39,807 nucleotides of DNA. Source: Fonticula-like sp. SCN 57-25. Taxonomy: Eukaryota. The position numbers and the translations under genes are program-made. Location: the NCBI GenBank assembly GCA_001724245.1, contig MEDX01000030.1, positions 1 to 39,807 of the forward strand, read 5' to 3'. This document shows positions 1-36,900 of this stretch, piece by piece; positions within the stretch are counted from its first letter, which is position 1, and the number at the start of each line of letters is the position of its first letter. Below the pieces are notes generated by a model. That model had not been told where the DNA came from. It worked only from the letters and a program-made list of their open reading frames with translations, and did not search any database.

Positions 1-3000
1 CCCGAGCACGAAGTCAATGCCCTCAAGCTGCTCAACATGGGCTTTCAAACATTCTCGACGGCCGACAAGAACGTTCTTGCGCACAATTTCATGCGGCTCG
101 GTTTTGTACAAGCCTCGGTGCGCGCTCTCGAACTCGGCCTCGGAACCATCGATTCGGTCGACAAGCACGGTGACACTCCGCTTCACATTGCCGTCGCGAA
201 CGAGGACACGGCCGGCGTGCTGGCGCTCCTCCGCTTCCTTACCATGCAGTCGCTCCACATCAAAAACTCGTCGGGGGTGACGGCGCGCAACGCCATTCTT
301 GCGTCCAAGAAGGCGCGCAGCACGCTTTCTACGATTGAAAAGACGTTGCAGGAGCGGGAGGCGAACGAGCAGGAGCTCAAGAAGCAGGCTGCGGCCGCGG
401 CGGCCGCGACGTCCAAGGCAAAGAAGGAGAAGGCGCTTGAGCTGGATGACGCCGAGGAAGACTTGAAAAAGCTTACCCAAGCGGCGCGCGTCAAGCGCAT
501 CGAGCAGCTGCTTTCCACGCTCTCTGGCAAGCCCGTAGATGCGCCCCTCCCCTTTGAGGTCCGCGGTCAGCCCGCCGAAAAGGCGCGCGACGCGCCGGGC
601 GCCCCACAGAGCTTGCCGTCGCTGACCAAGTTTGACCGCGGCATCAATGACCAGCTTGTTCGGAACGCTGATTTGGAGAACGCGCCGTGGACGGTGATGA
701 TGCCTCGATGCGTGTGGCAGCTGCACATGAAGATGCACGTCGGCCTGCGCCAGCCCATCATCAGCACGCTGACGCGCCTCGCGGCCGGCCAGTGGAACGC
801 CCAGCAGGACCGTTTGCTGGATCCACTCGATGAGCACTTTAAGGGCGTGCGGCTCTACCGGACGCCCGTGGTCCAGGACGTTGACCTCATCTGGGAGGTG
901 CTCGTGCGTTACCTGCCCGACCGCCACGCGTACAGCGACACAATCGTGGCGTGGGGCATTGCGCCCTCGGACCCCTCGTATCTGGAAAACCACCTTGCGT
1001 GGGCCGCGCATACGATTGGGCGCCGCTCGCCGCTCGCGCGCAGCATGAAGCTGAGCACGCTCGCATCGTACGACCTGTCGTCGTCGCTGACTGTGTTTAC
1101 GCCTCGCGTGTACAAGCCGAGCGACTTTGTGGACGGCTCGCTGCCCGACACGATCAAGGTCTACTATCCGATTGGCGACGGGCGCTACGCTCACCCGCGG
1201 ATGCTCCCAATGTACAACGTGGACAAGGCGTTTGTGCGCTCGTTCCTGGAAGGACTTGTGAATGTCGACTTTCCTATCTGCTTGTCAGAGGATGCCGACG
1301 TGTTCCCCACGGGCGGCGACTCGTCCGCCATCATCCTTCTCGGCCGTTCGGGCACCGGTAAGACGACCGTCACGATTGAACACATGTGGCGCGAGTACTG
1401 CCAGCACTGGTCGCCCGTCGGCAGCCGCATCGAGCGCGTCAGCCGTTCTGGCGCGCGTGGCCCGTTGCACCAGGTGTTTATCACGGCCAACCCGATCCTG
1501 CGCTCCGAGGTCCGCAAGTCGTTCCGCTCGCTTCAACGCGGCGCGGGCTTCAAGGTGCCAAAGGACGACTCGCACGCCATCACGGACCTGCGCTACGTGC
1601 CCGACGCGGCGTTCCCGCTCTTCCTCACGGCGCGCGAATGGCTCCTGCTCGTTGACGGCACGCTGACAAAGCCCTTTTTCACGGCCGCCGAGCGCACCGC
1701 TAGCGCTCACTCGAACACCTGGCACGAGGAGCGCCGCATGCTTTTCGAGATCCCGGACCTCGAGGTGGATGGTGGCGATGATGACGCGGAAGAAGCCGGC
1801 GCTGACGGCGCACAGGGGGCGGCGGGCGCGCAGGCTGGCGGCGGCGCGCGGCCGCGTCGCGAGGTCAATTACAGCTACTTTGCTGACGTGATGTGGCCGC
1901 GGCTCAACTCGGCCGGGCAGTACCCGTACCACCCGTCGCTCGTGTTCACCGAGATCTTTTCGTTCATCAAGGGGTCTGCCGAGAGCATGGAGCTGCCGCA
2001 AGGCCGCCTCCGCCTCGCAGACTACACGCAGATGGGCAAGAAGCGGAGCCCCAACTTTGCCGGCAACCGCGACCTCATTTACGAGATCTACCTCAAGTAT
2101 GAAAAGCTAAAGACGGAGCTGCACTGCTTTGACATTATGGACGCTGTGTTTTACATTTACCGCCAGCTCAAGGAGTCGGAAACGGGCTACGTCGGCGTGC
2201 CTGTCCACGCCATGTACCACGACGAGGTGCAAGACTTTACCCAGGCGGAGCTCATGCTCGGCTTTCTGGTCTCGTCCGACATCAACGGCATCTTTTGCTC
2301 GGGCGACACGTCGCAGACCATCGCGCGCGGCATCTCGTTCCGGTTCGCCGACCTGCGCTCCCTCTTCCACCTGCAGCAGGACATTCAAAAGGTGGTTGTC
2401 GCAAAGCACCGCCACCAGCTGCCGCCCTTTTCGGTCCCCAAGATCTGCAACCTGACCATTAACTACCGCACGCACTCGCGCATTCTGCAGGCGGCCTCGT
2501 CGGTCGTTGATATGCTGCACGCGCACTTTCCGTACGCGGTGGACAAGATGGAGCCCGACGTCGGCTGCTTTGACGGCCCCATCCCGGTCCTCTTTGAGAC
2601 GAACTCGCCCAGCGAGCTCGCCCTCCTCATGCACGGCGACAACCTGGCGGCTGAGGGCGTCACCGTCGAGCTCGACATGGGCGCCCAGCAGGTCGTCATT
2701 GTGCGCTCGCACGAGGCCAAGCTGCGCCTGCCCGACGACCTCCGCTCGGCGCTCGTCCTGACCGTCTTTGAGTGCAAGGGCCTCGAGTTTGACGACGTCT
2801 TTTTGTACAACTTTTTCTCGGACTCGCCCGCCGGCAACGAGTGGCGCGTCGTCACGTCGTACCTCGAAAAGGAAAAGTCGCGGTTGGTGCGCCAGGGCAT
2901 GACGCCGCTCCGCACGTCACAGCGGCAGCACGCGCGCCCGCTAAAGTTTGACGAGCGCGCGCACGCTTTGCTCGGCGAGGAGCTTAAGCAGCTCTACACC

Positions 3001-6000
3001 GCCATGACGCGTGCTCGCCGCCGCCTCTTTTTCTTTGACGAAAACGAGGAGAAGCGACTCCCGATGTTTGACTTTTTCCACCGGACGCAGCTCGCAAACG
3101 TCGTCAGCAGCGCGGTGCTGCGCGGCAGCTCGGTGCAGGTGGACGTGCTTGGGCTCATCTTGCCGTCGTCGCGCGACGAGTGGGCCGCGCGCGGCGACAT
3201 GCTGTTTGAGAACGGCGTCTTTAGCGTCGCCGCCGAGTGCTACCGCAAGAGCGGCGACCGCGAGTCGCTGCGCGTCGCGTCGGCATTTGCATCGGCCATG
3301 GCGGCAAAGCGGCTGCCGGCAGGGCAGGAGCGCCGCGACCTCTTTTTGGCGGCCGCCGACGGCTTTTTGCGGTCGCAGCGGTACGCCGACGCGAGCAGGT
3401 GCCTCTATTCGGCGGGGCAGTACACGAGCGCCGCCGAGCTGTTTATGATGCTCGAGCTGCCCCTCGAAGTCGCTCGCTGCTTTGAAAAGAGCGGCGATCG
3501 CCTTCAGGCGGCAGAGTATTTCGTCAAGGCGGGCAAGATCAACCGCGCGCTGCAGCTCTACCGCGACATGGGACACCACCACCGCTGCCTGCCGCTCATC
3601 GACAAGTACGCAATTACCATTTATTGAAAATGTTCAAGGGCTAACTGAGGGGATAGGCACCCGGATCTGAAGCTGACGGCGGCCGTCCGGAACGCGTACG
3701 CCATGCGGGCAGCGCTCTACTTTCACAAGGCGGGCAATGTTGAGGGCCTCCAGGATGCCATTACGCACGCGGACGACCTCGATTCGATCACAGCTTTCCT
3801 GCAGAAGTACAAGTACAACGAGGTGCGTGTCTGGTCAAATAGATCGAATGCGAAACTAACGATCTTTCTGTATCTTTCTCTAGCACTTGGCTGCTGTTCT
3901 CAACTCGCGCGGGCGAGTGACGGAGGCCGCCATGCTTCTTGTCGAGTCTGGCAGGTACGCCGACGCCGGCCTCCTGCTTCAGTCCAAGGGAGGCTTTGAC
4001 GCGACCGTGCTGCGGTACTTTGAGCGCAACGCAGAGTCGTCGGACGGCGCAGAGGCCGAGCTGTACTTTAGCAAGGCGCTCGACGCGGTGCGCGCGCTCG
4101 GCGCAAAGGGCGAGTACGACGCGGCGCGGCTCAAAATCTTTATTGCCGCGGCGGCCGCCGAGCGTGATCAGGACATGCCGAAGCTGCGCAAGGAGGCCAC
4201 GGCGTTTTTCAGCCAGCGCCAGTCTGCGTTCGGCATGGCGGCGGTCGAGCTGCTCAATATCCAGGCCGATGACGCCGCTCTGGTTGGAAAGCACGCGCTA
4301 CAAGGTATGTCCCATTGAATATTGCTTGAGTTGTGGCATGATTTTTTTTCTATGGATTGTCGCTTGATTTATCATGTATATTCTGGGCTCATTCAACTAT
4401 CATAGCACTCGCTCGCTCTCGCGACGCGGCCAAGCTGCTTCGCGCGCTGATCCACTATGCGAGCATTCCGCCGTCCCGCATCGACGACTCCCAAATCACT
4501 GACGAGGCCGAAAAGTACTGCGGCCTGCTCGTGCAGACGACGCGTGCGTCGGCCGTCCGCCTCATGGACAAGCTGAACGTTCGCATGCTTCGCATGAAGG
4601 CGGCCGGCGAGGAAAGCCTCCTTTCAAAGGCGCGCAATAGCGACAAGGTGCGTTGGAATACATCTGTTCACGAATCTGATATATGTTTTTCAGCTTTTGA
4701 TCTCGCTGGATGTTGGCGTCAAGCTGATGGGCCGCTCGCTCATGCTGACTGTCGACGAGCTTGTACACGCCGTCCTTTCTGGCCTGTCTAATCAGACGCC
4801 GCTCGCCGACGTCGTGCAGGCCGCCAGCGCCGCCCTGTACGCGCAGTACATCCACACGAGCTTTGTGCCGTACTATCAAACCCCGTCGGATGTCGCGCAG
4901 CCGTCCAATGACGCGCAGACTGCCGCCGCGCTCGACCGCCTGGTGGCGCAGCCCGGTGCGATGCCGTTGCCGGCGTCGGTCCGCCATGCGCTCAGCGTGC
5001 GCGCCCTGTCGGCCTGGCTCAGCCCGGCGACCGAGACGCACGCGCAGACGTACAGCGACATTGTCGCGGTGCGGCGGCGTCTCGCGCATGCCAACGAAAT
5101 GTGGCGGCTCCCGGCGCTGCTCCACCGACAGGGCCGCCAGTTTGGCATCCTCCCGGCGCAGCTTCCGCCCGTCCAAGGTACGCATTTTCGAGGTTTTGAA
5201 TGTTATATCTAAAGATTTATGTGCTTGTTTTAGTGCGGACGCTGCGCCCCAAGCCGACTGTTGTTGTGCGCCGCCACCGCGCCGGCTTTGTGCGCGTTCG
5301 CGCGTCGCCGCAGCGCACCGCGGCCGAGATTCTGTTCCGGCGCCGCGTTGGCCTTGGGAGCGACAGCGAGGATAGCGACGAAGAGTACGACATTCATGCG
5401 CCCGACGCCGACCCGCTGTCGTACCTCGAGACGCTTATTGAGGACCCCAACGCGCCCGACGAGTACGACGTGACGTACGAGTACCCGCCCGCGCGCGTCG
5501 AACCTGCGCTGCCCAGCGGTCTCTTCTGGCACGGCCGGCGCGCCGTGACGGTGCACCACCTGCTGCAGTACCCGCGGTGGCGCGGCGACGCGCCCGTCAC
5601 GGTCGCACAGGCGCTGTCGGCGGCAGCCCATCGCGCGGCGGCCGACGGTTCGGCTGCGGCAATCCCGCTGCTCCGCGTGGCCGCCACCACCCTGCTGTGC
5701 TACATCAGCAACATGAACGACGTGTATCTCCCGCAGTCGCTGCTCGACCTCACACGCGAGTTTGACGTGGCGCCGCCGCCGTCGCTCGTCGTGGGCGCCA
5801 TGGCACGCCAGGATAGCCTTATGCAGGTGCTGCGCGCGCTCGTGGACGCGTTCGTACGCGTCGGTGCGACGGTCAGGTCTGGAGAGTGGCGCGCGCCGTT
5901 CATCGCGCTCACGGCAGTTTTGCTCGTCAATCACTTTGTAAACGACCTCTTTGACGCTGAGCAGGCGACCAGTCTGCGCGCCATTCTCGTCCACGTGGGT

Positions 6001-16166: not shown

Positions 16167-19100
16167 ATGGCTGCGGATGACAAGTTCCACTTTGCGATCG
16201 ACCGCGGCGGCACGTTCACCGATGTCTTTGCCGAGCTGCCCACCGAGTACGGCGGCGGCCGTCGCGTGTTCAAGCTGCTGTCCTCGGACAAGGCGTATGC
16301 CGACGCCCCTACCGAGGGCATCCGCCGCATCTTGTCTGACGTGACGGGGATCCCGCACCCGCGCGGGGTGCCCCTCGACACGAGCCGCATCGGCAGCATT
16401 CGCATGGGCACCACTGTTGCGACGAACGCGCTGCTTGAGCGCAAGGGAGAGCGCTTTGCGCTGGTTGTGACAAAGGGGTTCGCCGACCTGCTGCAAATTG
16501 GTAATCAGAGCCGCCCCAAGATCTTTGATCTCCGCATCACTGTCCCCTCCGTCATCTACGAGCGGGTCGTCACTATCGATGAGCGCGTCATCCTGCTCCC
16601 TCCCTCTGCGGACGACTCTGTGCCCGCGGACTGTGTAAAGGTATCGACGGGCGACTATGTCCGCGTCGAGCAGGCGCCTGATCTCGATGCCGTCCGCGCG
16701 TCGCTCGCCACCGTGTACGATGCCGGCATCCGCAACCTCGCTGTTCTCTGCCTGCACTCGTATCTCTTTCCCGTGCACGAGGAGGCGATTGGCCGTGTCG
16801 CGCAGTCGATGGGCTTTGAGCACGTCACGCTGTCGTCCCACGCGATGCCGATGGTCAAGGCGGTCCCGCGCGGCTTCACTGCCTGCGCCGACGCGTACCT
16901 GACGCCCGCCATCCGCCGCTACGTCGACGGCTTCCGCTCCGGCTTTGACAGCGGCCTCAGCCGCGTCCCCGTGCTCTTTATGCAGTCGGACGGCGGTCTC
17001 ACGAGCGTCGACAAGTTCAGCGGCTTCAAGGCTATCCTCTCGGGACCGGCTGGCGGCGTTGTTGGCTTTGCCCTGACGACATACGGCGCCCAGTCGGGCA
17101 ACGGTGCGCCTACTTGTTTCTTGTTACTTTTAACTAACCGAGCGCGTAGCGGCCGTTGTTGGCTTTGATATGGGCGGGACGTCAACGGACGTGTCGCGCT
17201 ACGCTGGCCACTTTGAGCACGTCTTTGAGACGACGACGGCCGGCGTGACGATCCAGGCGCCGCAGATGGACGTGAACACGGTGGCGGCCGGCGGCGGCTC
17301 GCGCCTCTTCTTCCGCTCGGGCATGTTTGTTGTTGGCCCCGAGTCGGCGGGCGCGACGCCCGGCCCTGTGTGCTACCGCAAGGGCGGCCTGCTCGCCGTC
17401 ACCGACGCCAACCTCATGCTCGGCAGGCTCGTGCCAGAGTACTTTCCGCACATCTTTGGCCCGAACGAGAACGAGGCGCTCGATGCGCAGGCGACAGAGG
17501 AAGCTTTCCAGGAGCTCGCGCGGTCAGTGAACGAGTACACGAGCCAGCACGGCGCAGCGCCTCTCTCGCTCGACGAGATCGCCAGTGGGTTCATCGACGT
17601 CGCCAACGAGGCAATGTGCAGGCCTATTCGCGAGCTCACGCAGGCGCGTGGATACGACACAAAGAACCATGTGCTAGCTTGCTTTGGAGGCGCCGGCGCG
17701 CAGCACGGTGCGCATTGACCAGAGAAATGCCTCTTTTTACTAAACATCGGATTCTTTACCTATTCCTTTGTTCTATTTTCTTTTTCTTTCCTATCTATCA
17801 GCGTGCGCGATTGCGCGTTCCCTCGGCATGCGCAAGATCTTTGTGCACCGCTTCTCGCCGATCCTTTCCGCCTACGGAATTGCCCTTGCGGACGTGGTGC
17901 AGGAAGCGCAGGAGCCCAGCTCGACAGAGTTTACCCCCGCCGCCCTGCCGGCACTCAAGGAGCGCCTCGCCGCGCTCGAGCAGCGGTGCCGCGGCGAACT
18001 CGCGGCGCAGGGCTTCACGCCTGACCGTATTCACGTGGATCGTACGATATTGCCTTTCCTCTTCTTTGCTGACCGACAGCAATAGACTTTTTGAATCTGC
18101 GCTACGAAGGCACCGACTTTGCCATCATGACGCGCGCCGACGGCTCTGAGGACGGCGGATATTCAGCGTCCTTTTTGGAGCAGTACCGGCGCGAGTTTGG
18201 CTTTACGCTGCAGGGCCGCCGCATCTTTGTTGATGATATCCGCGTGCGCGGCGCTGGGCGGTCGCGGCGCGCCGCCACGAATCCCAACAGCGGCGTTCAG
18301 CGCGCATCGTCGGGCGTCGCGACGCCGCTGGCCACCAAGAGCGTTTACTTTACTGGCGGGCGGCGCCCCACGGACGTCTATATGGTCAAAGGTACGACAA
18401 AAATGACGTTTGGTTGATATTTTCTTTTGTACTTATTGTTGTTTGCCTGTAGATTTGCCGCAGTCTGTTGTCGTCAAGGGCCCTGCGATCTTGATTGATG
18501 ACTATGCGACTGTTGTCGTTGAGCCGAACGCGTCCGCCTGCGTCGTTGATGAAGGCGACATTATGATCACGCTGGACACTGTTGACAATTCATTGGACGC
18601 TGACGCCGCATCGCTTGCCGTTGCGGACCCGATCATGCTCTCCATCTTTTCGCACCGCTTCATGAGCATTGCCGAGCAGATGGGACGCACGCTGCAGCGC
18701 ACATCCATCTCGACCAACATCAAGGAGCGCCTCGACTTTTCGTGCGCGCTGTTCGCCCCCGACGGCGGCCTTGTTGCGAACGCGCCGCACATCCCTGTTC
18801 ATCTTGGCGCGATGCAGGAAGCGGTTCGCTACCAGCTTCGCACGGCTTCCGAAGGCCTTGTGGACGGTGACGTGCTCGTGTCCAACCACCCGCACGCCGG
18901 CGGTAGCCACCTGCCCGACATCACTGTCATGACGCCCGTCTTTAGCGACGGCAAGATTGTCTTTTTCGTGGCGAGTCGCGGCCACCACGCCGACATTGGC
19001 GGCATCTCGCCCGGCTCGATGCCGCCGCTGTCCAAGGAGCTCTACCAGGAGGGCGCCGCGATCAAGTCGTTCAAACTCGTGAGCGGCGGTGAGTTCCAGA

Positions 19101-20429
19101 CGCAGGGCATCACCGACCTTCTCAACAGCCCTGCTGTGCACCCCGGCTGCTCCGGGACGCGCAACCTGTCCGACAACCTCTCGGACTTGCGCGCGCAGGT
19201 GGCAGCAAACCACCGCGGCATCCAGCTCGTGCGCGAGCTCATCGAGGCGTACTCGCTCCCGGTCGTGCACGCGTACATGCAGCACATCCAGCGCAACGCA
19301 GAGGTGGCCGTGCGCGACCTCCTGCGGCAGGTGTGCGCAGAGAGGGGCACGACAGAGCTGTTTGGACGCGACTACATGGACGACGGGACGCCGATTCAGC
19401 TCCGCGTGACGATCGACCCCGAGCAGGGGAGCGCCGAGTTTGACTTTGAGGGGACGGGGCTGCAGGTGTACGGAAACTGTAACGCGCCGCCGGCCGTTAC
19501 GTACTCGGCAATCATATATTGCTTGAGGTGTATGGTGCAGCGCGAAGTGCCGCTCAACCAGGGGTGCCTCGCGCCAATCACGGTGAAGATCCCGCAAGGG
19601 TCGATTCTGAATCCGTCAGAGGATGCGGCGGTCGTCGGCGGGAACGTCCTCACAAGCCAGCGCGTCACGGACGTCATCCTGAAAAGTGCGCTGGGTTTTA
19701 TGGATTATTGGTCTTTTTGGCATGTCATCTTGCTATATTGGACACTTTATGCTATCGACGTGTGCCAATTTTGACTTGTTCCATGTCATCTTCTTACCCC
19801 AATTTTTTCCACTATCTAACTATCTTTCCTTAGCGTTCAAGGCGTGCGCCGCCTCGCAAGGCTGCATGAACAACCTCACCTTTGGCGACGACACATTCGG
19901 CTACTACGAGACGATTGCCGGCGGCGCCGGCGCCGGACCCTCGTGGCACGGCCGCTCGGGCGTCCACACGCACATGACCAACACGCGCATCACCGACCCC
20001 GAGATCCTCGAGCGCCGCTACCCTGTCGTCCTGCGGCAGTTCAGCCTGCGCGCCGGGTCGGGCGGCGCCGGCCGCTTCCGGGGCGGCGACGGCGTCGTGC
20101 GCGACATCGAGTTCCGCCGCCCGCTGCGCGTGTCGATCCTTTCGGAGCGGCGCGCGCGGCAGCCGTTCGGGCTCGAGGGTGGAGGGGACGCCATGGCGGG
20201 CGCAAACTACCTCACGAGGGCGCGCGACGGGCGGACAATCAGCCTCGGCGGCAAGAACACGGTCAGCGTCGAGGCGGGTGACATGCTGTCCATCAGGTCG
20301 CCGGGAGGAGGAGGGTTTGGCGCGCAGGGGGGGGCGCGGGGGGAGGAGGAGGAGGAGAGGCAGGCCGAGGCGGAGGCAAGGGCCGCGGGGAGCTTGCACG
20401 AGTTTAAGAGGATTCAAGAGTCGGCGTAA
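16167..20429 (+). CDS. OPLAH: ATP-dependent 5-oxoprolinase (fused hydantoinase A/B)
   Basis: Motifs [66 protein letters not shown] and [20 protein letters not shown]. Introns at 17104-17149, 17708-17801, 18042-18085, 18392-18452 and 19686-19833. Confidence 0.97.
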
Positions 20430-21299: not shown

Positions 21300-21520
21300 C
21301 GCGCAACAATTGTGAAATCCGCGCAAATTTTGGCGCGAACCGATATGATGACTCACTGGTTGAGTTGGACTGCAGCGACTGGAGATGCACAACGCACAGC
21401 CGACAAGCGTGTCAGCATTGTGTCAGCATTGTGTCGACAAAAATGCTAGCGATACTATGCTTTGCCTGGCGTGAGCCCTAAATTCAAGTCTGATTGCTCG
21501 TAGCCATCGCCCGTCTCGCC

Positions 21521-24037
21521 ATGAGCACCATGGACTTACGGCCTTTTAACGACTACGACTACGTATTGAAGCTGCTACCCGGTCGCCTGGCGCTCGCGAC
21601 AGACTCTGATATGGAGAATGCGATATTGGACGAGGCGAGGAGGGATCCACGGGTGAGAGAGGAGATCGCTGGTTTGGAAGAGAACATATTGGCCTTGGCG
21701 CGGGCCATGGCTAGGTCGGTGGCGGCTGAGAAAGCGGCGACGGTGGCTGAGGAAGCGGCGATGTTGGCTGAGGAAGAGGTGAGGGTGGCTGAAGAAGAGG
21801 CGAAAGTGACAAAGGAGGGGGAGAGTCCGGCTGTGGAAAAGGTTGGAGTGGCTGAAGAAAAGGCGAGAGTGGCTGAGGAAGAGTCGAGAGTGGCTGAGGA
21901 AGAGTCGAGAGTGGTTGAGGATTTTGAAAAGGTGATAGAGGCGGGGAGAAAGTGGCAAAGGGCGGACGAAGAGGCGAGAGTGGCGGACGAAAAGTCGAGA
22001 GTGGCGGACGAAAAGGCGAGAGTGGCGGAGGAAGTGGCGAGACCGTTTGTGGAAAAGGCGAGAGCGGGTGAGGAAGAGCTGACAGTGGACGCGCTGATGG
22101 TGAGAATAGTGGCGTCAGAGGCGAGATTGGCTGCGGAAAAGGCGGTAACGGCGGCGGAAAAGGCGGGATCAGCTGCGGCAAAGGCGAGAATAGCGGCGGC
22201 AGAGACGGGAACAGCTGCGGCAGAGGCGAGATTAGCTGCGGAAAAGGCGAGAACAGTTGCTATACGGTTGGGCAAAGCTGCTTTAAGGGTTGCGGAGGCG
22301 AGAACAGCTGCGACAGAGGCGAGAACAGCTGCGACAGAGGCGAGAACAGCTGTGTCGGAGGCGCGCAATGCTTTGTTTGATGCGATGCGAGCTGTGGACA
22401 GTCGTAGCTGTCCTCGACTGGTTGAAGAAGGCTTCTTCCCTCTTGGGTCGTTGTCGGACGTTCCTTATTCGCCTAAAGCAAACGATTCTGCCCCGAAACC
22501 GAATCGTGGATTCCTCAAGCGCTGCGCATTTGATGCCTCTGTTTTCGTTCAAACAGACGTCGTCAGTCCCTCCAAGGGGTGGATCGCCGATTCCCATGTC
22601 ATGAGGCACGAACTAAGTTTTACCCTTTCGCTTGTTTTGAGATCGCTTCTGGAATGCGTGAATCTCAAGCCGTTTGACGTGGGTTACGACCAGTCGCGCG
22701 AGCTGCTGGAATTCCTCGGAGGCGGTGCTTGCGACGATCCGGCGCAGACATCATACTACGAAGCAGTGCGAGACCCCAGGCACGATTGGCAGTCGGCCCC
22801 CGGATATTTATTCCACTTTAACGACAGGCCACTTGCCTGCGTAGAGGTCAAGTATCCCCGCTCACGCAACCCCGTTGCCGCCCTGCAGGACAGCAGAGTG
22901 CTGCGCAAGGTAAGCGACTATATGAAGGTGGTTTATTTGTTGAGCGGCGTGGAGGCGCAGTTTGCCATTTTGACGGACTATAAGGTAATGATATTTCTCT
23001 GGACAGAGGAGGCGAACGAGCTTGCTGGGGCGGAATTGGCGTTTACGCGCAAGCGGCTGGAGAGCTGGGTGTCGGCTGCTGCTCGACTCCATCCCAAGAC
23101 CCTGCTTGACGTGTACCCAGAGATCATGACGCCCAGACCCGATGAACCGAAATTGGAGGCAGGCGGGCCCGCGCGCCCGAGCTGTGATGTGAAAGAGGCG
23201 CTCAGCAGGTTTGACGTGGGCAACTTGTACGTGTCAGAGCCCTATTATATGGAGGGGAAGCCCGATTCGGTCTCGATGCTGTACTCTGTGCTCTTCAAGG
23301 CTATGCTCGGCTTTCTCTCGCCGAATGTCGTCTTTGAGGACGGCGGCCAGTATGACCTGCAACCGGTGAACGATGAGCCCAGCGATGTTTCGTCTGCTCC
23401 TTTGGGCCGCGCTATGAGTGACCGTCAGTTCCTGCAGTTGTCCACGGTGCGGCCGCCGCGGATGCAGTGGGCGCCGACGCCCGACGCGTCAGACTATGCA
23501 AACTTGATGGACCCACAGACGACCGACTTTAATATTCTAAAGCTTTTTAGGGCGGGTGCAGACGGTCGGGCGGCGCTGGCGTTCAGCAAGGGAGAAGATG
23601 GCAGGACCACGATTTGCGTGCTAAAGATGATGCGCAATGGCAGATACGCGGCCGCCGTCGAGGTGGAGCGCTGGAATCATCTGTACAGCGACGTCTGGCC
23701 GAGAACGAATCCCGCTTTTGCTGTGAACCTTATGGGTCTGGGCGATGAAAAGACGATCGCGGCGGTTGCATTGCCGTACGTTGGCTTGGTGAACTATGAG
23801 ACGACCTGGAAAATGCCCGAGTTTAGGGAGGCCCTGGATGCTGCCATCGAGGATATGGCGCGCAAGGGCTTCCTCCATGATGACCTGTGCAGTCGGCACG
23901 TAGGGTATGTTTACCGTAACAAGGTGATGCGCGTCGTCTTGATTGATTTGACGCGCATGAAGGAGGTCGATTCCGAGGACGAGAGCAAGGTCGCGGAAGC
24001 GATATGTGACATGCGCGAGCAGCTGTCTTTAAAATGA
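21521..24037 (+). CDS. Coiled-coil + PD-(D/E)xK REase-like + kinase-like protein (Crinkler-type architecture), 838 aa from ATG 21521; possible upstream exon 21443-21470
   Basis: Single long ORF. N-terminal heptad repeats; REase-fold pattern APGYLF...PLACVEVKYP...DYM...FAILTDYKVMIFLW; kinase-like motifs RAGADGRA / CVLKM / EVERW / FLHDDLCSRHVG / VVLIDL. Confidence 0.65.
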   Translation: MSTMDLRPFNDYDYVLKLLPGRLALATDSDMENAILDEARRDPRVREEIAGLEENILALARAMARSVAAEKAATVAEEAAMLAEEEVRVAEEEAKVTKEGESPAVEKVGVAEEKARVAEEESRVAEEESRVVEDFEKVIEAGRKWQRADEEARVADEKSRVADEKARVAEEVARPFVEKARAGEEELTVDALMVRIVASEARLAAEKAVTAAEKAGSAAAKARIAAAETGTAAAEARLAAEKARTVAIRLGKAALRVAEARTAATEARTAATEARTAVSEARNALFDAMRAVDSRSCPRLVEEGFFPLGSLSDVPYSPKANDSAPKPNRGFLKRCAFDASVFVQTDVVSPSKGWIADSHVMRHELSFTLSLVLRSLLECVNLKPFDVGYDQSRELLEFLGGGACDDPAQTSYYEAVRDPRHDWQSAPGYLFHFNDRPLACVEVKYPRSRNPVAALQDSRVLRKVSDYMKVVYLLSGVEAQFAILTDYKVMIFLWTEEANELAGAELAFTRKRLESWVSAAARLHPKTLLDVYPEIMTPRPDEPKLEAGGPARPSCDVKEALSRFDVGNLYVSEPYYMEGKPDSVSMLYSVLFKAMLGFLSPNVVFEDGGQYDLQPVNDEPSDVSSAPLGRAMSDRQFLQLSTVRPPRMQWAPTPDASDYANLMDPQTTDFNILKLFRAGADGRAALAFSKGEDGRTTICVLKMMRNGRYAAAVEVERWNHLYSDVWPRTNPAFAVNLMGLGDEKTIAAVALPYVGLVNYETTWKMPEFREALDAAIEDMARKGFLHDDLCSRHVGYVYRNKVMRVVLIDLTRMKEVDSEDESKVAEAICDMREQLSLK
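21743..22370 (+). repeat. Degenerate 21-nt coding tandem repeats (heptads xRVAEEx / ARTAATE)
   Basis: Exact CGAGAGTGGCTGAGGAAGAGT copies at 21864-21884 and 21885-21905. Exact GAGGCGAGAACAGCTGCGACA copies at 22295-22315 and 22316-22336. Many diverged copies lie around them. Confidence 0.9.
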
Positions 24038-24286
24038 GCTGCACCGCCTATGAAACGCTTTTCAAACGTGCACCGTGCCATGGCACGGCATTATTTTTAT
24101 CATTGATGTAATATTTTCATGAGACGCAGATAAGAGTTAATATATGAAAAAACTGTATTTCAAAAAAGAAAATGTGTACAATACATGTGAACGACACAAT
24201 TGACCTCAACTACATGAATGAAAAAAAAAGCAGCAACAATAGAGACTGCACAAAATGCTTTCTGACGTTATGGGGGTTGGGCATGA

Positions 24287-26842
24287 TTAACCGCGAGTTG
24301 CCTTCAAATGCAGGCCTTGAATAACAGAAATTAAGGAACGGAGGTCCGAGTCGGCGGCCAGACGCAGCGGACGGGTAGCGCGGAGCATGGCGTCGTAGGC
24401 GTTCATTTGGGCCGACATTGAGTTCTTGTTGCCGGTGCGGTACCAGTATACCTCCTCGGTGAGGCGCTCGACAACAATGTTCTCGTTCAGGGCGGCGCGC
24501 ATATGGAACTCCCAGTCTTCGGCGCCGAGGCGGTCGGTGGAGAACCCGTGCAGCATGTCGAACGACTCGCGGCGCGCCAAAAAGGTGGGCCCGCCAAAGA
24601 CGTTGACGAGGGCGCCCGCAGCAATGGGACCGCCCGGCACCGTCCACATCTCGTGCCGCTCGGGGTCCTGCAGCGGCGACTGAGAGCGGAAGTACACGGC
24701 TCCCGTCATCACAATGTCGGCGTCGGTGTGGCAGCCCACGCGCAGCAATGTGCTGATCGCCTTTGGCATGAGCATATCATCGGCGTCCAGGAAGAGAATC
24801 CAGCTGCCCTTGGACTTGGCCGCGCCCTGGTTACGAGAGTCGCCCAGGTAGGTGTTGGTCGGCTTGCGCAGAACCGTGATCTTGAGCGGTGAGACGCGCT
24901 GCTCAACCTCGTCGAGCAGCTGCGCTTGGCTCTCGGTTTCGCTAAAGTCGTCCACAATGATAATCTCGACGTTGGGGTAGTCCTGCTCCTCGACGCTCTG
25001 AATGGCGTCTAGCAGAACCGGTCCGGAGCGGAACGAGGTAATGATGACAGAGATGAGCGGGCACTCGCAGTTGCTGGTGCGCGCCAGGTGCTTGCGGACC
25101 TGCGGCGCGGTCGACGAGCGCGCGCGGAGCCACTTGTGCTGGTCGAGCGCGGACGACACGCGGATCGGGCTTGGCAGCTCGGCGCCGGTGGGCAGCAGGC
25201 TCAGATCGGAGCGCTGGCCAACCTTGACGGCAAGCTCAAACAGCGAAGCGAGTGCGTCGGGCGCCTTCATGAGGGCGTCGGCGGGGCGCGGGAGCACGGC
25301 GCGGGAGCCGCCCTCGGTGAGGAGGTGCGCCAGCGTCTTGGCGAGCGCGTAGCCGTTGGGCTCGATGAGAACGTGCGCTTGGTCCGCGGGGTGGATGAGC
25401 TCAACGGTGCCGCCGACGGCGGTGGCGATGAACGGAATGCACGCCGTGAGCATCTCGAGGACGACATTCGGGCAATTCTCCATGGTTGAAGGCGAAACAG
25501 CAAGGCCGCGGTGGTTGCGGAGGTACTGCTGGGCGGCCTCGGGTGACTCGGCAGAAAGGATGGTCACGACTGTCTTCGGCCAGCGAACGAGTCGGCTGTT
25601 GATGTACACGTCGCCCGTTGGGCCGTCGAACGAGACGGGCTTGACGCGCGCCAGGAAGGTGACGCGAGCCGGCACCTGCGACGGGGGGAGCATCTCGTAG
25701 AGCTTGTCAATGGCATCGCAGAAAATGTCAATACCCTTGAAAAAGTCGGTCTTGCCAAAGAACACGATTTCCTCAAACGGAAGCGCGGTGCCGTAGGGGC
25801 AAGCGTCGAGGCGGCCCATGCGAGGAACCTGCGCGTCTTCTCCGTTCGGCTTGAGCGTCGGCGAAGGGATGGACGCGGTGTTGGGGAGGTTGGGAATGAC
25901 GTAGACGCTTTCCGGCATGACCCAGCCAGCATCGTTGACATAGTCGGCGATGAAGGTCGACGGAGCCAGCACAATGTCACCATAGCGGACGCTCTGGCGC
26001 TCGGTCCAATCGGCGATGAGATCGTTGTGCGACTGCGGCAGGTTCTTCTGGTTGTTGAGCGCCCACAAGTGCGGTCCGTGAAGAACGGGCATGAGCGTGA
26101 CGGCAGAGAAGGCCTCACCCTGGTGCTTGGCGCGCGCAACGTCAAACCCGACACCCATCCACTCGTGGTAGACGAGCGTGTCGCAGAGAGGCTCGTGCAG
26201 CCGCATCCACTCGTACAAATGGCGACTGTAGGTCTGATAACGAGGACCGTGGATGCGGGGATCGCGACGATGGCGCACCATGCAGATGCCGTCAACGTGG
26301 ATCGACCGGTTGCGCTCCCTCATAAAGGTCTCGTTGTCGACGATGAAGGGATCAAGAAAGATGACGCGAACAAAGTGGCCCTCCTTGCGGAGGAAACGAG
26401 CCAAAAGCCGTGTCGACGTGCCGATTCCGCCAGAGGCCAAGCCAACATATTCCGTCGTTGCGAGGCAAATGTTGCCGCGGTTCTCGGCAGCCGGCGGCAG
26501 ATTCGCGCAAAACGGATCGTACACTAGGCCATTGAACTCGAGGTCGTCCGGCGGCAACATATACTGCGAAAGCTCGGTGCTCTGTGGTTTTGACTTGTCG
26601 ACCTTGCCTTTTCCATCAGCACCCGCGCTCGCCTTGCAGTTTGAAACTGGCCGACGGATGTTATCGCGGCGCTGCTGCTCGCGATGCAACTCGACCGTGC
26701 GATCCACGACGGCCCGCTGCGCCACAAAAACCGACTGAACCTCAGTCTGCACTTCTGCTTCTCGAGGAACCGTCAGGTACGTGAGCAGCAGCAGAGCCAA
26801 GGTAAGCAAGAGAAGCCGCTTCGGCCTCCTTACACCCAGCAT
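24287..26842 (-). CDS. Bifunctional glycosyltransferase (GT-B/GT4 + GT-A/GT2) with N-terminal type II membrane anchor, 851 aa, intronless
   Basis: Anchor RRPKRLLLLTLALLLLTYLTV. GT4 motifs GGIGT, FFGKTDFFKG and PSTMENCPNVVLEML...ATAVGGTVELI. GT2 motifs ISVIITSFR...QDYPNVEIIIVDD, RNQG...WILFLDADD and EDWEFH. Confidence 0.85.
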   Translation of the reverse strand: MLGVRRPKRLLLLTLALLLLTYLTVPREAEVQTEVQSVFVAQRAVVDRTVELHREQQRRDNIRRPVSNCKASAGADGKGKVDKSKPQSTELSQYMLPPDDLEFNGLVYDPFCANLPPAAENRGNICLATTEYVGLASGGIGTSTRLLARFLRKEGHFVRVIFLDPFIVDNETFMRERNRSIHVDGICMVRHRRDPRIHGPRYQTYSRHLYEWMRLHEPLCDTLVYHEWMGVGFDVARAKHQGEAFSAVTLMPVLHGPHLWALNNQKNLPQSHNDLIADWTERQSVRYGDIVLAPSTFIADYVNDAGWVMPESVYVIPNLPNTASIPSPTLKPNGEDAQVPRMGRLDACPYGTALPFEEIVFFGKTDFFKGIDIFCDAIDKLYEMLPPSQVPARVTFLARVKPVSFDGPTGDVYINSRLVRWPKTVVTILSAESPEAAQQYLRNHRGLAVSPSTMENCPNVVLEMLTACIPFIATAVGGTVELIHPADQAHVLIEPNGYALAKTLAHLLTEGGSRAVLPRPADALMKAPDALASLFELAVKVGQRSDLSLLPTGAELPSPIRVSSALDQHKWLRARSSTAPQVRKHLARTSNCECPLISVIITSFRSGPVLLDAIQSVEEQDYPNVEIIIVDDFSETESQAQLLDEVEQRVSPLKITVLRKPTNTYLGDSRNQGAAKSKGSWILFLDADDMLMPKAISTLLRVGCHTDADIVMTGAVYFRSQSPLQDPERHEMWTVPGGPIAAGALVNVFGGPTFLARRESFDMLHGFSTDRLGAEDWEFHMRAALNENIVVERLTEEVYWYRTGNKNSMSAQMNAYDAMLRATRPLRLAADSDLRSLISVIQGLHLKATRG

Positions 26843-32968: not shown

Positions 32969-33850
32969 CTACTTGCCGCCGTCGCTCGGCTGGTCGTCCT
33001 CTGACTCTGACGACGCCGATCCCGACGCACTCGGAACACGCTCCGGCACGATCGTAAAGTCTTCTAGCTCGTTCAGGCCCACTGCGTAGAATACCGGGAA
33101 CTCGACGACCATGGTGTTTGCCAGCGCGCTCTCGATTGTCCGCTCGGCCGGCTGCTCGTACCGGACGTACGACGGCGGCCCCGCCTCTGGCGAGCGCGCC
33201 ATGACGCACAGCTGATCCGCCCCTGCTATAATGTATCTGTGCAGGCGCACTCGCGCCGGAGCCTCTGGCTCGAGCGAAGTGAACAGTGCCGCGAGGCAGT
33301 CCTTTAAAGACGTGTCGTCCTGCACGCCGTCCACGCACAGTCGCACATCGCACGTCGGGAAAACCCACTCAACGCGCCACCGGATCTTTCCTTCGCGCGT
33401 GCTATAAAACGATGTGTTGCTCTTGTGCCGCGACATCCCCGCCGGCATCAGCTGCAGCGAGATGCGGCGATTGGACGCCTGGCGGTGCAGCTGACGGAAT
33501 CGAGGGGCAAGCTTGGCGGCGACGCTCGCGCCCGCCTTGCCGGCAGGGGGCGCGTGGCGCTGCGCATTGTCCGTCAAACGCGCCGCGTCCTCCAGAAAGC
33601 CGATATCTGCGATCCCGCTCAGTGACGTGTTGTAGAACCGCGTGGGCGTACCGCTCATGAGGTTCACGTCCGTGTAGTCATGGACGCCGACAAACGCCGT
33701 CCGCGGACGGCGGCCGTCGCATCCCGTCTTGGCCTTGTGCGCCTTTACGCACGCTAGCGAGCACGTCACCTGCTGGCAGCCCGGGCACCGGTACTTCCAC
33801 GGCGCCGTCGTGCAGACGCTGCACAGCGCCGCCGCCGTCGAGGTCGCCAT
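32969..33850 (-). CDS. ZNHIT6: Box C/D snoRNP assembly factor Bcd1/ZNHIT6 (zf-HIT)
   Basis: CSVC...KYRCPGC..VTCSLACVKAHK..TGCDGRR, NLMS|DIGFLE, MPAGMSRHKSN.S, WRVEW and VVEFPVF. One 45-nt intron at 33607-33651; ATG at 33850. Confidence 0.9.
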   Translation of the reverse strand: MATSTAAALCSVCTTAPWKYRCPGCQQVTCSLACVKAHKAKTGCDGRRPRTAFVGVHDYTDVNLMSGTPTRFYNTSLSGIADIGFLEDAARLTDNAQRHAPPAGKAGASVAAKLAPRFRQLHRQASNRRISLQLMPAGMSRHKSNTSFYSTREGKIRWRVEWVFPTCDVRLCVDGVQDDTSLKDCLAALFTSLEPEAPARVRLHRYIIAGADQLCVMARSPEAGPPSYVRYEQPAERTIESALANTMVVEFPVFYAVGLNELEDFTIVPERVPSASGSASSESEDDQPSDGGK

Positions 33851-33980
33851 GACGCGTGCAATCTGCAAACTGAAATGCGCCGTCAGCATCGGAAAAATTG
33901 CAAGCGATGACTGAACGCGAGACGGCAAGGGGCAAGGATGACGCGCCATCATTTGCGACAAGGCGCCTCCCGCGTCGACC

Positions 33981-36900
33981 ATGGCGGACGCGGACGCTGC
34001 GGCAAGGCCCGTGGCCGTGACCGTAGAAGAGCCGACGTCGAGCGGAAAGCCCCGCATCATTGCTAAATTCCAACGATTGTTTCGACGCACCACCTCGGAT
34101 GCCAAGCTGTCGGGTGCCTCGACGGGCAGCGGCACATCGATGCAGGTGGGTGGCATTGCGCGTCTCGCGAATGCGGGCATCAACACTGGCGGCGGTATAG
34201 CTGCTCCCGTTCCGTTGGCGCTCGAGGCCGGCGGGATCGCCACGGTTGAACCCACTGCCGCTGCGTCGACTGCCGCCCCCACTGGCCTGCTGCTCCCGAT
34301 GGCGACGCTCCCTATGGCACGCGCAGCCGGCGGTGCGTTTGGCTCCTTCCTATTCCAGCTGCGCGTCTCTGTCGCGGCGATCAACAGCCGCCACGCGCGC
34401 GGAACGATGACCACGCCCGCTATATACCTCATCCGCGTCCAGTACGGCAACACGCCGTTCACCTGGATCATCCGCCGCCGCCTGCGCGACTTCATGCAGC
34501 TGCACTCGCGCCTTCGCCTGCTCCAGATCAAGCGCGCCCAGGGCCGCCTGCCGCACTTTCCGCGCCTCTTGGACCTCCCCGGCATGGACACCCACGCCGC
34601 ACGCGAGCACGCAGCCTACACCGAAAATATTGCCGAGGACGACGCCCGCATTGCCGCACAGCCTATGACCTTTCACGGCCCCTCTTCGCCGTCCCCCGGC
34701 GCCGCGCATGACCGTCGCGGGCAGATTGCGCCGCCCGAAGTGGACCGCCTGACCGTGGATCTGTGCACGTACCTGACCGAGCTGCTGCACGGCCAGCTGT
34801 GCGAAAAGGCGCGCCGTCTGCTGTGCGAGTTTCTCGAGTGCAGCAGCGCCTCTTTCAATCCGCTATTTGGCCCCAAGGGAAAGGAAATGTTTGTTTATGT
34901 CTGCCACACGCGCAGCCGCAACCCGCTCGCGCCGTTGCTTCGCCGCATCCAGGAGACATTCCGCCTTCGGCTTCGCGAGTTTGACCCGGCCGTGCGCCGC
35001 GCCCGCCGCCGCTGGCTCGTCGTCCGCTCCAACTGCGTCGTTCTCTTTGACTCTCTGGACGCGTCGACGCCGTCGCGCGTCATCCTCGTTGACCGCACCT
35101 TTGACGTACTGACCGGCCGCAAGGCGACCAAGAGCAGCAAGGGCGTCATCGTGCGCTCCCTGTCTGCGCCCAACGGCTCGCTGCGCCTCCAGACGATCCA
35201 CACGTCGAGCGCGCGCGAGCTTGCACTTCACCTTCAGGCCCTAAAGGCGAGCCTGTGGGCGAGCCAGCACCGCTTTGACAGCTTTTTCCCGCAGCGCGAA
35301 AAGACACGCGTCGTGGCGCACGTCGACGGCGCGGCCTACTTTGACGCCGTGGCGGACGCGCTCGAGTCGGCGCAGCGGACCATCTTTATCGCCGACTGGT
35401 GGCTGTCGCCCGAGCTTTACCTGAAGCGCCCGCCGAGCAGAAACCACGAGTGGCGGCTGGACCGCGTGCTGCGCCGCAAGGCCGCGCAGGGCGTGCGCAT
35501 CTTTGTCCTGCTCTACAAGGAATTTCCCAATTCAATGATTGTCGAGAGCCTTTACGCAAAGCGGACGCTGCAGGCGCTTCACCCGACAAACGTGCTCGTG
35601 CAGCGCCACCCGGACCACGTCGCGCCGTCGGGGACGCTCTACTGGGCGCACCACGAAAAGATTGTCGCCATCGACAGCGAGCGCGCATTTATCGGCGGAA
35701 TCGACCTCTGCTTTGGGCGGTACGACACGACGGCGCACAACGTGTCGGATATCCACGCAAGAATGTTTCCGGGAAAGGACTATTCCAACCCGTACGTCAA
35801 GGACTTTTTCGAGCTCGAGCAGTACGACCGCGACGGCGTGGATAGGCTCGCGGTGGCGCGCATGCCGTGGCACGACGTCGGGATGGAGATGACGGGCGCG
35901 GCGGCGAGCGATGTCGCGAGGCACTTTGTCGAAAGATGGAATTACATCAAGACATCAAAGGGTACGATGGTGATGAAAATAGTAGGGAAAATGTATATAG
36001 ATATATGGGACTGGTCTAGATGATAAAACATGTCATGATTGTGTACAGTTTGTGTCCTTTTCCTTTTGTTCATGCGCACACTTTTATGCTACATAATTGC
36101 TGACACCGCCCTTAGCCGAGCAGGACCCCTCGATCCCCTTCCTCGAGCCCGAAGCGAGCGTCGATGACCGCTACCCTCCCCCCTCCCCTCCCCCCTCTGA
36201 CGCCGCTCAGCGCCCCATGGGCACGAGCAATGTCCAGATTGTGCGCTCCGCCGGCCGCTGGTCGAGCGACGACGACGTCATCGACAGCTCGCTCTACAAG
36301 GCGTACATTGAGGCGATCCGCGGCGCCGAGCACTTTATCTACATTGAGAACCAGTTTTTCGTATCGAATGCCGTCGGTCCCTCGTCGGACGCCGCCGCTC
36401 TGCCGGTCCGCAACGCGATCGCCGCCGCACTTGTCGAGCGCATTGCGCGCGCGCACGCCGAACAGCGCCGCTTCCGCGTCATTGTCGTGCTTCCCCTCAA
36501 GCCAGCCTTTGCCGGCGACATTAGCGAAGCAGGTGCGAGCGCGTCGCTGCGCATCATTCTCCGCCAACAGTCGCTCTGCATTGGCCTTGGGCCGCAGTCG
36601 CTCCTCGGGCAGCTCAAGACGCGCGGCATCGACCCCGACGAGTACATTTGCTTTGTCGGGCTGCGCTCGTGGGGCCTGCTCGCCGATAGGGCGCCAGCGG
36701 GGTTCGGCGACGTGTGCATGTTTTGCGGGCAGCCGTGCGGGGCGGCGTGCCGCACGCTCATGGAGGAGAGGGCGGACATGCCGGACATTGAGGTGGAGCA
36801 TGTCGTCGACGCAAAGGAGGCGACAGACGATGCAGCACAAAATCAGGTTGAATCTCAGCAGGACGTGCAGCAGGACGTGCAGCAGAATGACACGCAAGTT

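Follow-up and report, generated by a model that had tools for sequence, protein, structure and literature searches.

What kind of protein is encoded by the open reading frame (ORF) of 838 codons found at positions 21521 to 24037 of contig MEDX01000030.1 (assembly GCA_001724245.1) from the metagenome-derived eukaryote Fonticula-like sp. SCN 57-25, and what could such a protein be doing among ordinary eukaryotic genes? The frame (P0001) starts with an ATG at 21521, ends with a stop codon at 24035–24037 and is open throughout; it lies on the forward strand of the window analysed here, that is, the whole stretch of 39,807 nucleotides (nt). An initial annotation had described its product as a Crinkler-like effector built from three modules. 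The three-module architecture, consisting of a repeat-built header, a nuclease fold and a kinase fold, is borne out, and the evidence presented below favours, with a probability of about 0.55, an intracellular nuclease–kinase protein of the DUF5898 family that takes part in genomic conflict and is organized like the Spok proteins of Podospora and Fusarium, the nuclease of this particular copy being predicted to be dead and its kinase active.

A nuclease fold joined to a minimal kinase

Against Pfam (E ≤ 1), the only match of the 838-residue protein is to DUF5898 (PF19250), with 44.8 bits against a cut-off of 28.9, at amino acids (aa) 677–796. DUF5898 is listed among the Pfam families of the PKinase clan in the methods of one study (PMC9758233), and in the literature searched it is named only as that list entry. 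The Pfam model spans about 109 positions, from the kinase N-lobe through the catalytic loop, and both the nuclease domain and the helical headers of the family lie outside it.

With aa 300–838 as query, 1.84 billion representatives were searched exhaustively using phmmer; 113 of them reached E ≤ 1e-3, the record of the query itself included. One of them, P0003, is a close relative (689 aa, E 1e-100) and represents a 41%-identical paralogue found in the same samples as the 838-codon gene; the other family matches are approximately 25–43% identical. An alignment of 80 sequences (A1) was assembled from aa 330–838 of the 838-residue protein and from 79 relatives, mostly of at least 340 aa, leaving out short fragments and two odd long matches. 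At E ≤ 0.01 all 80 members match DUF5898, 14 match HSDR_N, 13 Kdo, two VRR_NUC and one HSDR_N_2, and the curated cut-off of an HsdR-type model (HSDR_N, HSDR_N_2) is exceeded in two family members. Searches of PADLOC and NCBIfam returned nothing above noise (PD_DExK with 13.9 bits and hsdR with 18.2 bits, each in single relatives), and a word-indexed homology search recovered the 838-residue protein alone or, when the family profile was used, this protein and P0003 only.

An organism or transcriptome label was attached to eight of the 30 clusters looked up, the other 22 carrying none. The named members come from Capsaspora owczarzaki, at several loci (CAOG_03664/009697, CAOG_06486 and CAOG_02834), the choanoflagellate Salpingoeca punica, the chytrids Rhizophlyctis rosea and Hyaloraphidium curvatum, and Balamuthia mandrillaris. 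Three DUF5898 proteins head the list of BFVD matches, those of Pandoravirus japonicus (E 1.5e-16), P. macleodensis (1.7e-15) and P. inopinatum (5.5e-12), corresponding to entries A0A811BR09, A0A2U7UEV6 and A0A0B5JBF6; since the alignments span 403–594 columns, they cover both the nuclease and the kinase domains, and the family is also carried by giant viruses of amoebae. The gene is not a conserved single-copy orthologue, an outcome that the initial annotation had named as speaking against its reading: DUF5898 is a rare, patchy and multi-copy family. In a tree of the family, built with no viral sequence and bearing no support values, the nearest named relative of the 838-residue protein is a protein from Capsaspora.

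The two folds are recovered in the predicted structure and in profile comparisons. While an AlphaFold model computed from the single sequence (aa 300–838) was unusable, with a predicted local distance difference test (pLDDT) score of 31.9, the model of aa 330–838 obtained with A1 reached a mean pLDDT of 80.4 and a predicted template modelling (pTM) score of 0.79. When this model was compared with 48,161 PDB representatives using VIA-align, the top match was the nuclease domain of BpuSI (3s1s_A residues 6–170; Z 12.1, root-mean-square deviation 3.0, 151 residues aligned), which lies on model residues 17–271, equivalent to aa 346–600. This match, together with that of 14 of the 80 members to HSDR_N, upholds the restriction-endonuclease fold that had been proposed for the middle of the protein, and a restriction-endonuclease core (alpha–beta–beta–beta–alpha–beta) is thus supported by the model for the PD-(D/E)xK domain at aa 346–500 (22556–23020). 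Minimal kinases came next in the VIA-align ranking, among them OspG (Z 10.4), YabT, Rio2 and NleH1 (10.2 each), Rio1 (10.1) and Bud32 (9.2); among the Foldseek matches listed for the PDB there are only kinases (best E 1.2e-5), and the family profile matches CaMK1G (4.6e-6) and CK2 alpha' (8e-6) in alignments that begin at the Gly loop, include HxDL and extend to the DFG equivalent. Along with the DUF5898 match, these results confirm that the C-terminal portion, aa 634–838 (23420–24034), adopts a protein-kinase-like fold of minimal size.

The high pTM of the two-domain model suggests that nuclease and kinase are packed against each other in a defined way, as they appear to be in the prediction. 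They are connected by a bridge region (aa 501–633, 23021–23419) that comprises a conserved helix and a disordered loop and is devoid of a cysteine cluster. The helix, at aa 582–599, has the family consensus LxxxLxSVxxKM and is modelled against the nuclease domain.

Catalytic residues of the two domains

The nuclease consensus of the family contains a Glu in helix 1, 'rpD' at strand 2, 'EVK' at strand 3 and 'GQxxDY', with QxxxY as in HsdR. The resulting E/D/E/K/Q signature is complete in 51 of the 80 aligned members, with Glu in place of Gln in six more, and GQxxDY is found in 66. All five residues are intact in P0003. The 838-residue protein, on the other hand, reads R/P/E/K/K at these positions (R362, P427/G428, E442, K444 and K463) and has thus lost three of the five, the metal-binding Asp included. 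This Asp, present in 66 of the 80 members, is replaced by Pro-Gly at codons 427–428 (22799–22804), and BLASTP places a one-residue gap in the 838-residue protein opposite Asp260 of P0003; the (D/E)xK half of the motif is kept at codons 442–444 (E-V-K, 22844–22852), and at the QxxxY site the Tyr is kept and the Gln has become K463. The motifs on which the initial annotation had relied (ACVEVKYP, DYM, FAILTDY..IFLW, GADG, VLK, HDDLCSRH and LIDL) are all present, but the missing nuclease residues had been overlooked.

The nuclease of the 838-residue protein is therefore probably dead, as judged from its alignment with the family. The substitutions do not extend to the domain as a whole: against a hidden Markov model (HMM) of the family built without both proteins, the nuclease domain of the 838-residue protein scores 50.0 bits and that of P0003 55.1, and these near-equal values point to a loss specific to catalytic positions, not to general decay. 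Nor is this copy alone, as the D..ExK triad is substituted in 16 of the 80 members, ten of which have a full kinase signature; loss of the nuclease site with retention of the kinase is thus recurrent in the family.

The kinase domain presents a Gly loop (G679-A-D-G682), K702, E714, a catalytic loop with the sequence H786-D-D788-L-x-x-R-H793, and D809. The six residues of the kinase signature G/K/E/D/H/D (G682, K702, E714, D788, H793 and D809), complete in 65 of the 80 members, are all found in the 838-residue protein. Its C-terminus falls 29 residues after the metal-binding Asp, D809, and consequently the activation segment is missing, as is most of the C-lobe. Against a family HMM from which both proteins had been excluded, its kinase scores 123.2 bits, compared with 113.9 for that of P0003. 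Judging from these conserved features, the kinase is most likely to be active.

The gene, its header and its relatives in the samples

No intron is needed in the 838-codon ORF, given that BLASTP shows its product to be colinear with the 689-residue P0003 over aa 298–838. The absence of an intron had been noted in the initial annotation and stands; its supposed rarity in this region does not, since an ORF for a UvrD-like protein (1196 aa) and one for a glycosyltransferase (851 aa) are also single, and the 5-oxoprolinase gene is the only multi-piece gene confirmed in the window. The unusual codon usage reported previously is also found: the G+C content at third codon positions (GC3) is 0.652, against 0.70–0.84 in ten other long ORFs, and AGA and AGG together account for 52% of the Arg codons (33% outside the repeats), compared with 1–10% in three neighbouring ORFs. 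The codon usage of the ORF is atypical.

The protein begins with a leader (aa 1–64, 21521–21712) that belongs to no known family and contains no hydrophobic stretch resembling a signal peptide; neither a signal-peptide-like nor a transmembrane segment was found anywhere in the 838 residues. Approximately 90 nt upstream of the start codon, at 21409–21435, a unit of 11 nt (GTGTCAGCATT) is perfectly repeated in tandem (2.5 copies).

The leader is followed by a heptad-repeat header (aa 65–295, 21713–22405) encoded by 21-nt units and rich in Ala, Glu, Val and Arg, which can be set in 33 rows of seven with a single phase kept across all 231 residues; the repeats had been recognized before, and only their extent, given as about 210 residues, was somewhat short. 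Tandem Repeats Finder detected period-21 arrays at 21736–22075 (15.9 copies), 22119–22260 (6.8 copies) and 22295–22363 (3.3 copies, 93% matches), and two neighbouring units coding for RTAATEA have the same DNA letters. Expansion of the header by 21-nt duplications, as originally proposed, is supported by these arrays and by their single phase. One position of the heptad is Ala, Val or Leu in 91% of cases and the position three residues further on is hydrophobic in 61%, mostly Ala; because of this pattern and of the scarcity of Pro and Gly (two and seven in 231 residues), the header is likely to be a long helix. With a core so rich in Ala, this helix might pair as a classical coiled coil or in the Alacoil manner, or stand alone as a single charged helix; the coiled coil assumed by the initial annotation is a putative one. 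When the whole 838-residue protein was compared with PDB sequences using phmmer, only a designed four-helix bundle was retrieved (E 0.13).

The length of the header differs between paralogues, from approximately aa 65–295 in the 838-residue protein to approximately aa 60–135 in P0003. The region preceding the nuclease comprises 361 residues in the former and 0–317 (median 80) in the other 79 aligned members, nine of which have charged or Ala-rich headers of a similar kind. No insertion or deletion in the header was reported in contigs from individual sequencing runs, which were fragmented over the repeat region. Between the header and the nuclease fold there is a poorly conserved segment of low confidence (aa 296–345, 22406–22555).

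The relatives of the gene in the samples were evaluated by comparing the contigs of four runs (X1–X4) with the window. A 4473-nt contig from X1, with a depth of 12.4 against 15.8 for the 838-codon gene, matches the window at 23660–23704 only and has loose ends that read as P0003; loose ends of the same type are also found in X2. At least two members of the family therefore co-occur in the samples, as P0003-type contigs sit alongside the 838-codon gene in X1 and X2. Around the same positions, X3 and X4 contain a third, more divergent variant, so that the samples may hold three family members. The stretch 23660–23704 (VEVERWNHLYSDVWP) is the only one conserved at the DNA level with the contig of the paralogue. 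The P0003 cluster itself has four nearly identical members with four variable residues; its 661-residue member differs by a later start only, with the same number of repeats.

A total of 23 differences from the run contigs were listed, 21 of them within the ORF, where 19 are nonsynonymous; four nonsynonymous differences in the leader are common to X1, X2 and X3. About three quarters of random changes are expected to be nonsynonymous. The observed proportion is close to this expectation and therefore indicates that no purifying selection is visible, rather than that positive selection has acted. At 22375–22601, across the end of the header and the start of the middle region, X2 has two forms, one identical to the window and the other with 16 differences in 227 nt, 10 of the 11 listed being nonsynonymous; the divergent form may represent another allele or else a close paralogue. 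A metagenome scan found a single locus (L001), identical to window positions 23774–24473 over the 700 nt aligned, and thus yielded no new allele. In a second assembly the 3' end of the gene is identical and is followed by the same downstream gene. Of the runs, one contains 95% of the sampled words of the sequence and eight more contain 20–41%; none of the listed runs with the sequence is on record as RNA, which has no bearing on expression.

These data may be read as those of a decaying, functionless paralogue that has been drifting since its duplication and whose frame is open by chance. The three lost nuclease residues, the 19 nonsynonymous changes among 21, the atypical codon usage and a branch longer than that of P0003 in the family tree would all be in keeping with such a fate. 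A frame of 2.5 kb that is still open, the retention of all six kinase signature residues, a kinase score (123 bits) that exceeds that of P0003 (114 bits) against a model built without the 838-residue protein, a structural prediction confident in both domains and the occurrence of the same sequence in several samples are less easily accommodated, and make mere decay unlikely.

The neighbouring genes are ordinary eukaryotic genes, coding for a UvrD-like helicase, a WD40 protein, a 5-oxoprolinase, a glycosyltransferase, a BCD1/zf-HIT protein, a phospholipase D and an RCC1 protein. The UvrD-like ORF (37–3627, forward strand) has the UvrD-like helicase C-terminal domain as its sole Pfam match at E ≤ 1e-4. 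The 5-oxoprolinase gene (16167–20429, forward strand) is split into at least three ORF pieces that match Hydant_A_N/Hydantoinase_A and Hydantoinase_B (1–340 and 348–518), and the nearest named enzymes, 62–74% identical, are found in chytrids, other early-diverging fungi and animals alike, so that no more than 'opisthokont-like' can be said of the organism. Convergent with the 838-codon gene is the intronless gene (24287–26842, reverse strand) for a fusion of GT4-type and GT2-type glycosyltransferases. The Atlas clusters nearest to this fusion by features and structure are 97–100% bacterial among the matches listed and its GC3 (0.79) is host-like; it may be an old bacterial acquisition. The BCD1/zf-HIT and phospholipase D motifs are located one on each of two long ORFs, at 32969–34585 (reverse strand) and 33981–36023 (forward strand), which overlap by approximately 600 nt; in the overlap, probably only one of the two is coding.

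This setting bears on the origin of the gene, for which acquisition from a pandoravirus-like giant virus and subsequent residence in the host chromosome would be compatible with any of the functions considered here. Such an origin would fit the finding that pandoravirus DUF5898 proteins, aligned over both domains, take the first three places in BFVD, and the fact that the gene is intronless, with a lower GC3 and a choice of Arg codons unlike that of its neighbours. It is nevertheless quite improbable for a gene that stands alone amid host-like neighbours, accompanied by neither further viral genes nor flanking repeats, and whose nearest named relative in the tree, from which viral sequences were absent, is cellular.

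The same surroundings would suit an ordinary cellular enzyme with no role in conflict, for instance one that serves DNA repair or signalling and whose kinase or ATPase is directed to its target by a DNA-binding module with a nuclease fold. Core cellular roles are filled by minimal kinases such as those of the RIO and Bud32 type. Kinases of this type are among the structural matches, the locus lies among housekeeping genes with no sign of mobile elements, and the second assembly has the gene and its downstream neighbour in the same order. An extremely rare and patchy family, multi-copy with deep paralogues both in Capsaspora and in these samples, present in pandoraviruses and repeatedly deprived of its nuclease residues, is hardly what would be expected of a housekeeping factor; the variants seen in the 838-codon gene, for their part, reveal no sign of purifying selection, and this interpretation is quite improbable.

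Relation to Spok and Crinkler proteins

Among described systems, the nearest in architecture are the Spok spore-killer proteins (SPOK1–4), rather than the Crinklers. Spok proteins have an N-terminal coiled coil encoded by a nucleotide repeat of variable length, followed by a domain of unknown function, a PD-(D/E)XK domain with HsdR as its best HHpred match and a QxxxY motif, a Cys/His cluster, and a C-terminal kinase with more affinity to the Kdo/ELK group than to classical protein kinases; killing is attributed to the nuclease and resistance to the kinase (PMC6660238). Mutation of the nuclease Lys abolishes killing, while a kinase Asp mutant is toxic and is rescued by the wild type (PMC6660238); killing proceeds via DNA damage, in Escherichia coli and in yeast (PMC9972908). 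More recently, the combination of nuclease and kinase was described as a widespread architecture that ties together Spok, CRN8 and Medea (PMC12693581, published in 2025 and citing Zhang et al., 2016); InterPro IPR052396 is the Spok family as named there.

The 838-residue protein has the same order of modules, that is, a repeat header, a PD-(D/E)XK domain and a C-terminal kinase that stops shortly beyond its catalytic region; like Spok, the gene is intronless, multi-copy and fast-diverging, and in the DUF5898 family, too, secondary matches are to HSDR_N (14 of the 80 members) and Kdo (13 of the 80). The differences are equally tangible. The header comprises approximately 230 residues, compared with about 40 in Spok; the nuclease signature is short of three of its five residues; and the family is found in holozoans, chytrids, an amoebozoan and pandoraviruses, whereas Spok is found in Ascomycota. 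An Atlas feature score of 0.84 to an Ascomycota cluster bearing SPOK2_N can be taken as a lead only. Neither the 838-residue protein nor its A1 relatives match a Spok-named Pfam family, the presence of that model in the Pfam copy searched being uncertain, and the literature searched contained nothing relevant on Spok outside Ascomycota or on nuclease–kinase proteins of pandoraviruses or Capsaspora.

Fusions of a restriction-endonuclease (REase) domain to a protein kinase are also known from the Crinkler/RHS (CR) proteins, such as CRN8 of Phytophthora, whose header modules vary and are in some cases alpha-helical. According to a review (PMC5289972), CRN effectors were first identified in oomycetes, the REase–kinase pair makes up about one-sixth of CR C-termini, some headers are unrelated alpha-helical domains, and in the REase–kinase proteins the nuclease has been proposed to be the toxin and the kinase its regulator. 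A translocated effector of the CR type, delivered into the cells of another organism with a REase toxin under the control of the kinase and a coiled coil in place of the ubiquitin-like header, would fit this frequency, the existence of alpha-helical headers and the patchy, lineage-expanded distribution of DUF5898. The 838-residue protein, however, lacks a ubiquitin-like header as well as the LxLFLAK and HVLVxxP motifs, matches no Pfam family besides DUF5898 and has no signal-peptide-like segment, and its nuclease motif is degenerate; moreover, none of the named family members is an oomycete protein, their sources being Capsaspora, Salpingoeca punica, two chytrids, Balamuthia and pandoraviruses. 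As neither a Crinkler header motif nor a signal peptide is found and DUF5898 is the sole Pfam match, the label 'Crinkler-like effector' is not established, a delivered effector is quite improbable, and an intracellular Spok-like nuclease–kinase is the better-supported interpretation.

The remaining resemblances are confined to single domains. The bacterial effectors OspG and NleH, RIO1/RIO2 and Bud32 share the fold of the kinase and a similarly truncated C-lobe (Z 9.2–10.4, with approximately 150–170 residues aligned), but are 11–17% identical to it and none is fused to a PD-(D/E)xK domain. BpuSI, a type IIG enzyme, and HsdR provide the best structural match of the nuclease domain and the best secondary Pfam match of the family, respectively, but both are prokaryotic restriction enzymes with methylase or motor modules, while the domain of the 838-residue protein is fused to a kinase and has lost its Asp.

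According to the preferred reading as a Spok-like conflict protein, an HsdR/BpuSI-like PD-(D/E)xK domain would be packed against a minimal RIO/OspG/Kdo-like kinase, and a header grown by 21-nt duplications would place a helix of about 230 residues, rich in Ala, Glu, Arg and Val, in front of the pair, possibly as an oligomerization or spacer module. By analogy with Spok and with REase–kinase proteins of the CRN8 type, the nuclease of the family at large would be a DNA-damaging weapon that the kinase controls or neutralizes, and DUF5898 genes would be agents of genomic conflict, similar to toxin/antidote genes, rather than housekeeping genes. The pseudo-nuclease of the 838-residue protein would still fold and might bind DNA, and its kinase would retain the control or antidote activity, perhaps directed towards P0003, whose nuclease motif is intact.

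Several points weigh against this interpretation. The likeness to Spok and to CR REase–kinase proteins is one of architecture, any homology in sequence being putative, and the Cys/His cluster of Spok (C-x3-C-x13-C-x5-H-x7-H) is absent: there is no cluster or CxxC-type pair upstream of the kinase, the only Cys between the domains being C555. That P0003 and the 838-codon gene share a genome is inferred from their co-occurrence in metagenomes. The 19:2 ratio of nonsynonymous to synonymous differences, obtained from low-depth contigs and with no control gene, is near that of unconstrained change. The loss of the nuclease, for its part, is based on alignment. PD-(D/E)xK enzymes can relocate catalytic residues; E442 and K444 remain, D434 sits in the hairpin between strands 2 and 3, and activity through relocated residues is conceivable. 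In addition, the nuclease domain as a whole scores near that of P0003, its loss being limited to individual residues. Finally, the locus is surrounded by ordinary genes and has neither a transposon nor direct or inverted repeats on its flanks.

A bolder version of the Spok-like reading would see in DUF5898 a Spok-like class of selfish single-protein toxin/antidote elements that extends well beyond Ascomycota to filastereans, choanoflagellates, chytrids, amoebae and pandoraviruses, and in the 838-codon locus an 'antidote-only' copy, with a dead nuclease, an active kinase and a greatly enlarged oligomerizing header, that guards the cell against a nuclease-intact paralogue of the P0003 type in the same genome. 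This extension is speculative and holds only a small share of the likelihood. If it were true, the 16 broken triads among the 80 aligned members, about one in five, would record the repeated disarmament of killers.

The combination of nuclease and kinase underlies Spok, and REase–kinase has been reported as a common C-terminal form of the Crinklers, with CRN8 as the studied case. For DUF5898, so far an uncharacterized Pfam family, the analysis provides a two-domain anatomy, a confident model in which the domains are apparently packed against each other, and a taxonomic range that takes in giant viruses and an amoeba as well as early fungi and unicellular organisms related to animals. The presence in the same samples of a P0003-type protein with an intact nuclease and of a disarmed copy constitutes a natural experiment on what the kinase protects against. 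Should the toxin/antidote logic hold for this family, drive-like elements made of a single gene would go much further back, and be spread much more widely, than the Spok genes of ascomycetes.

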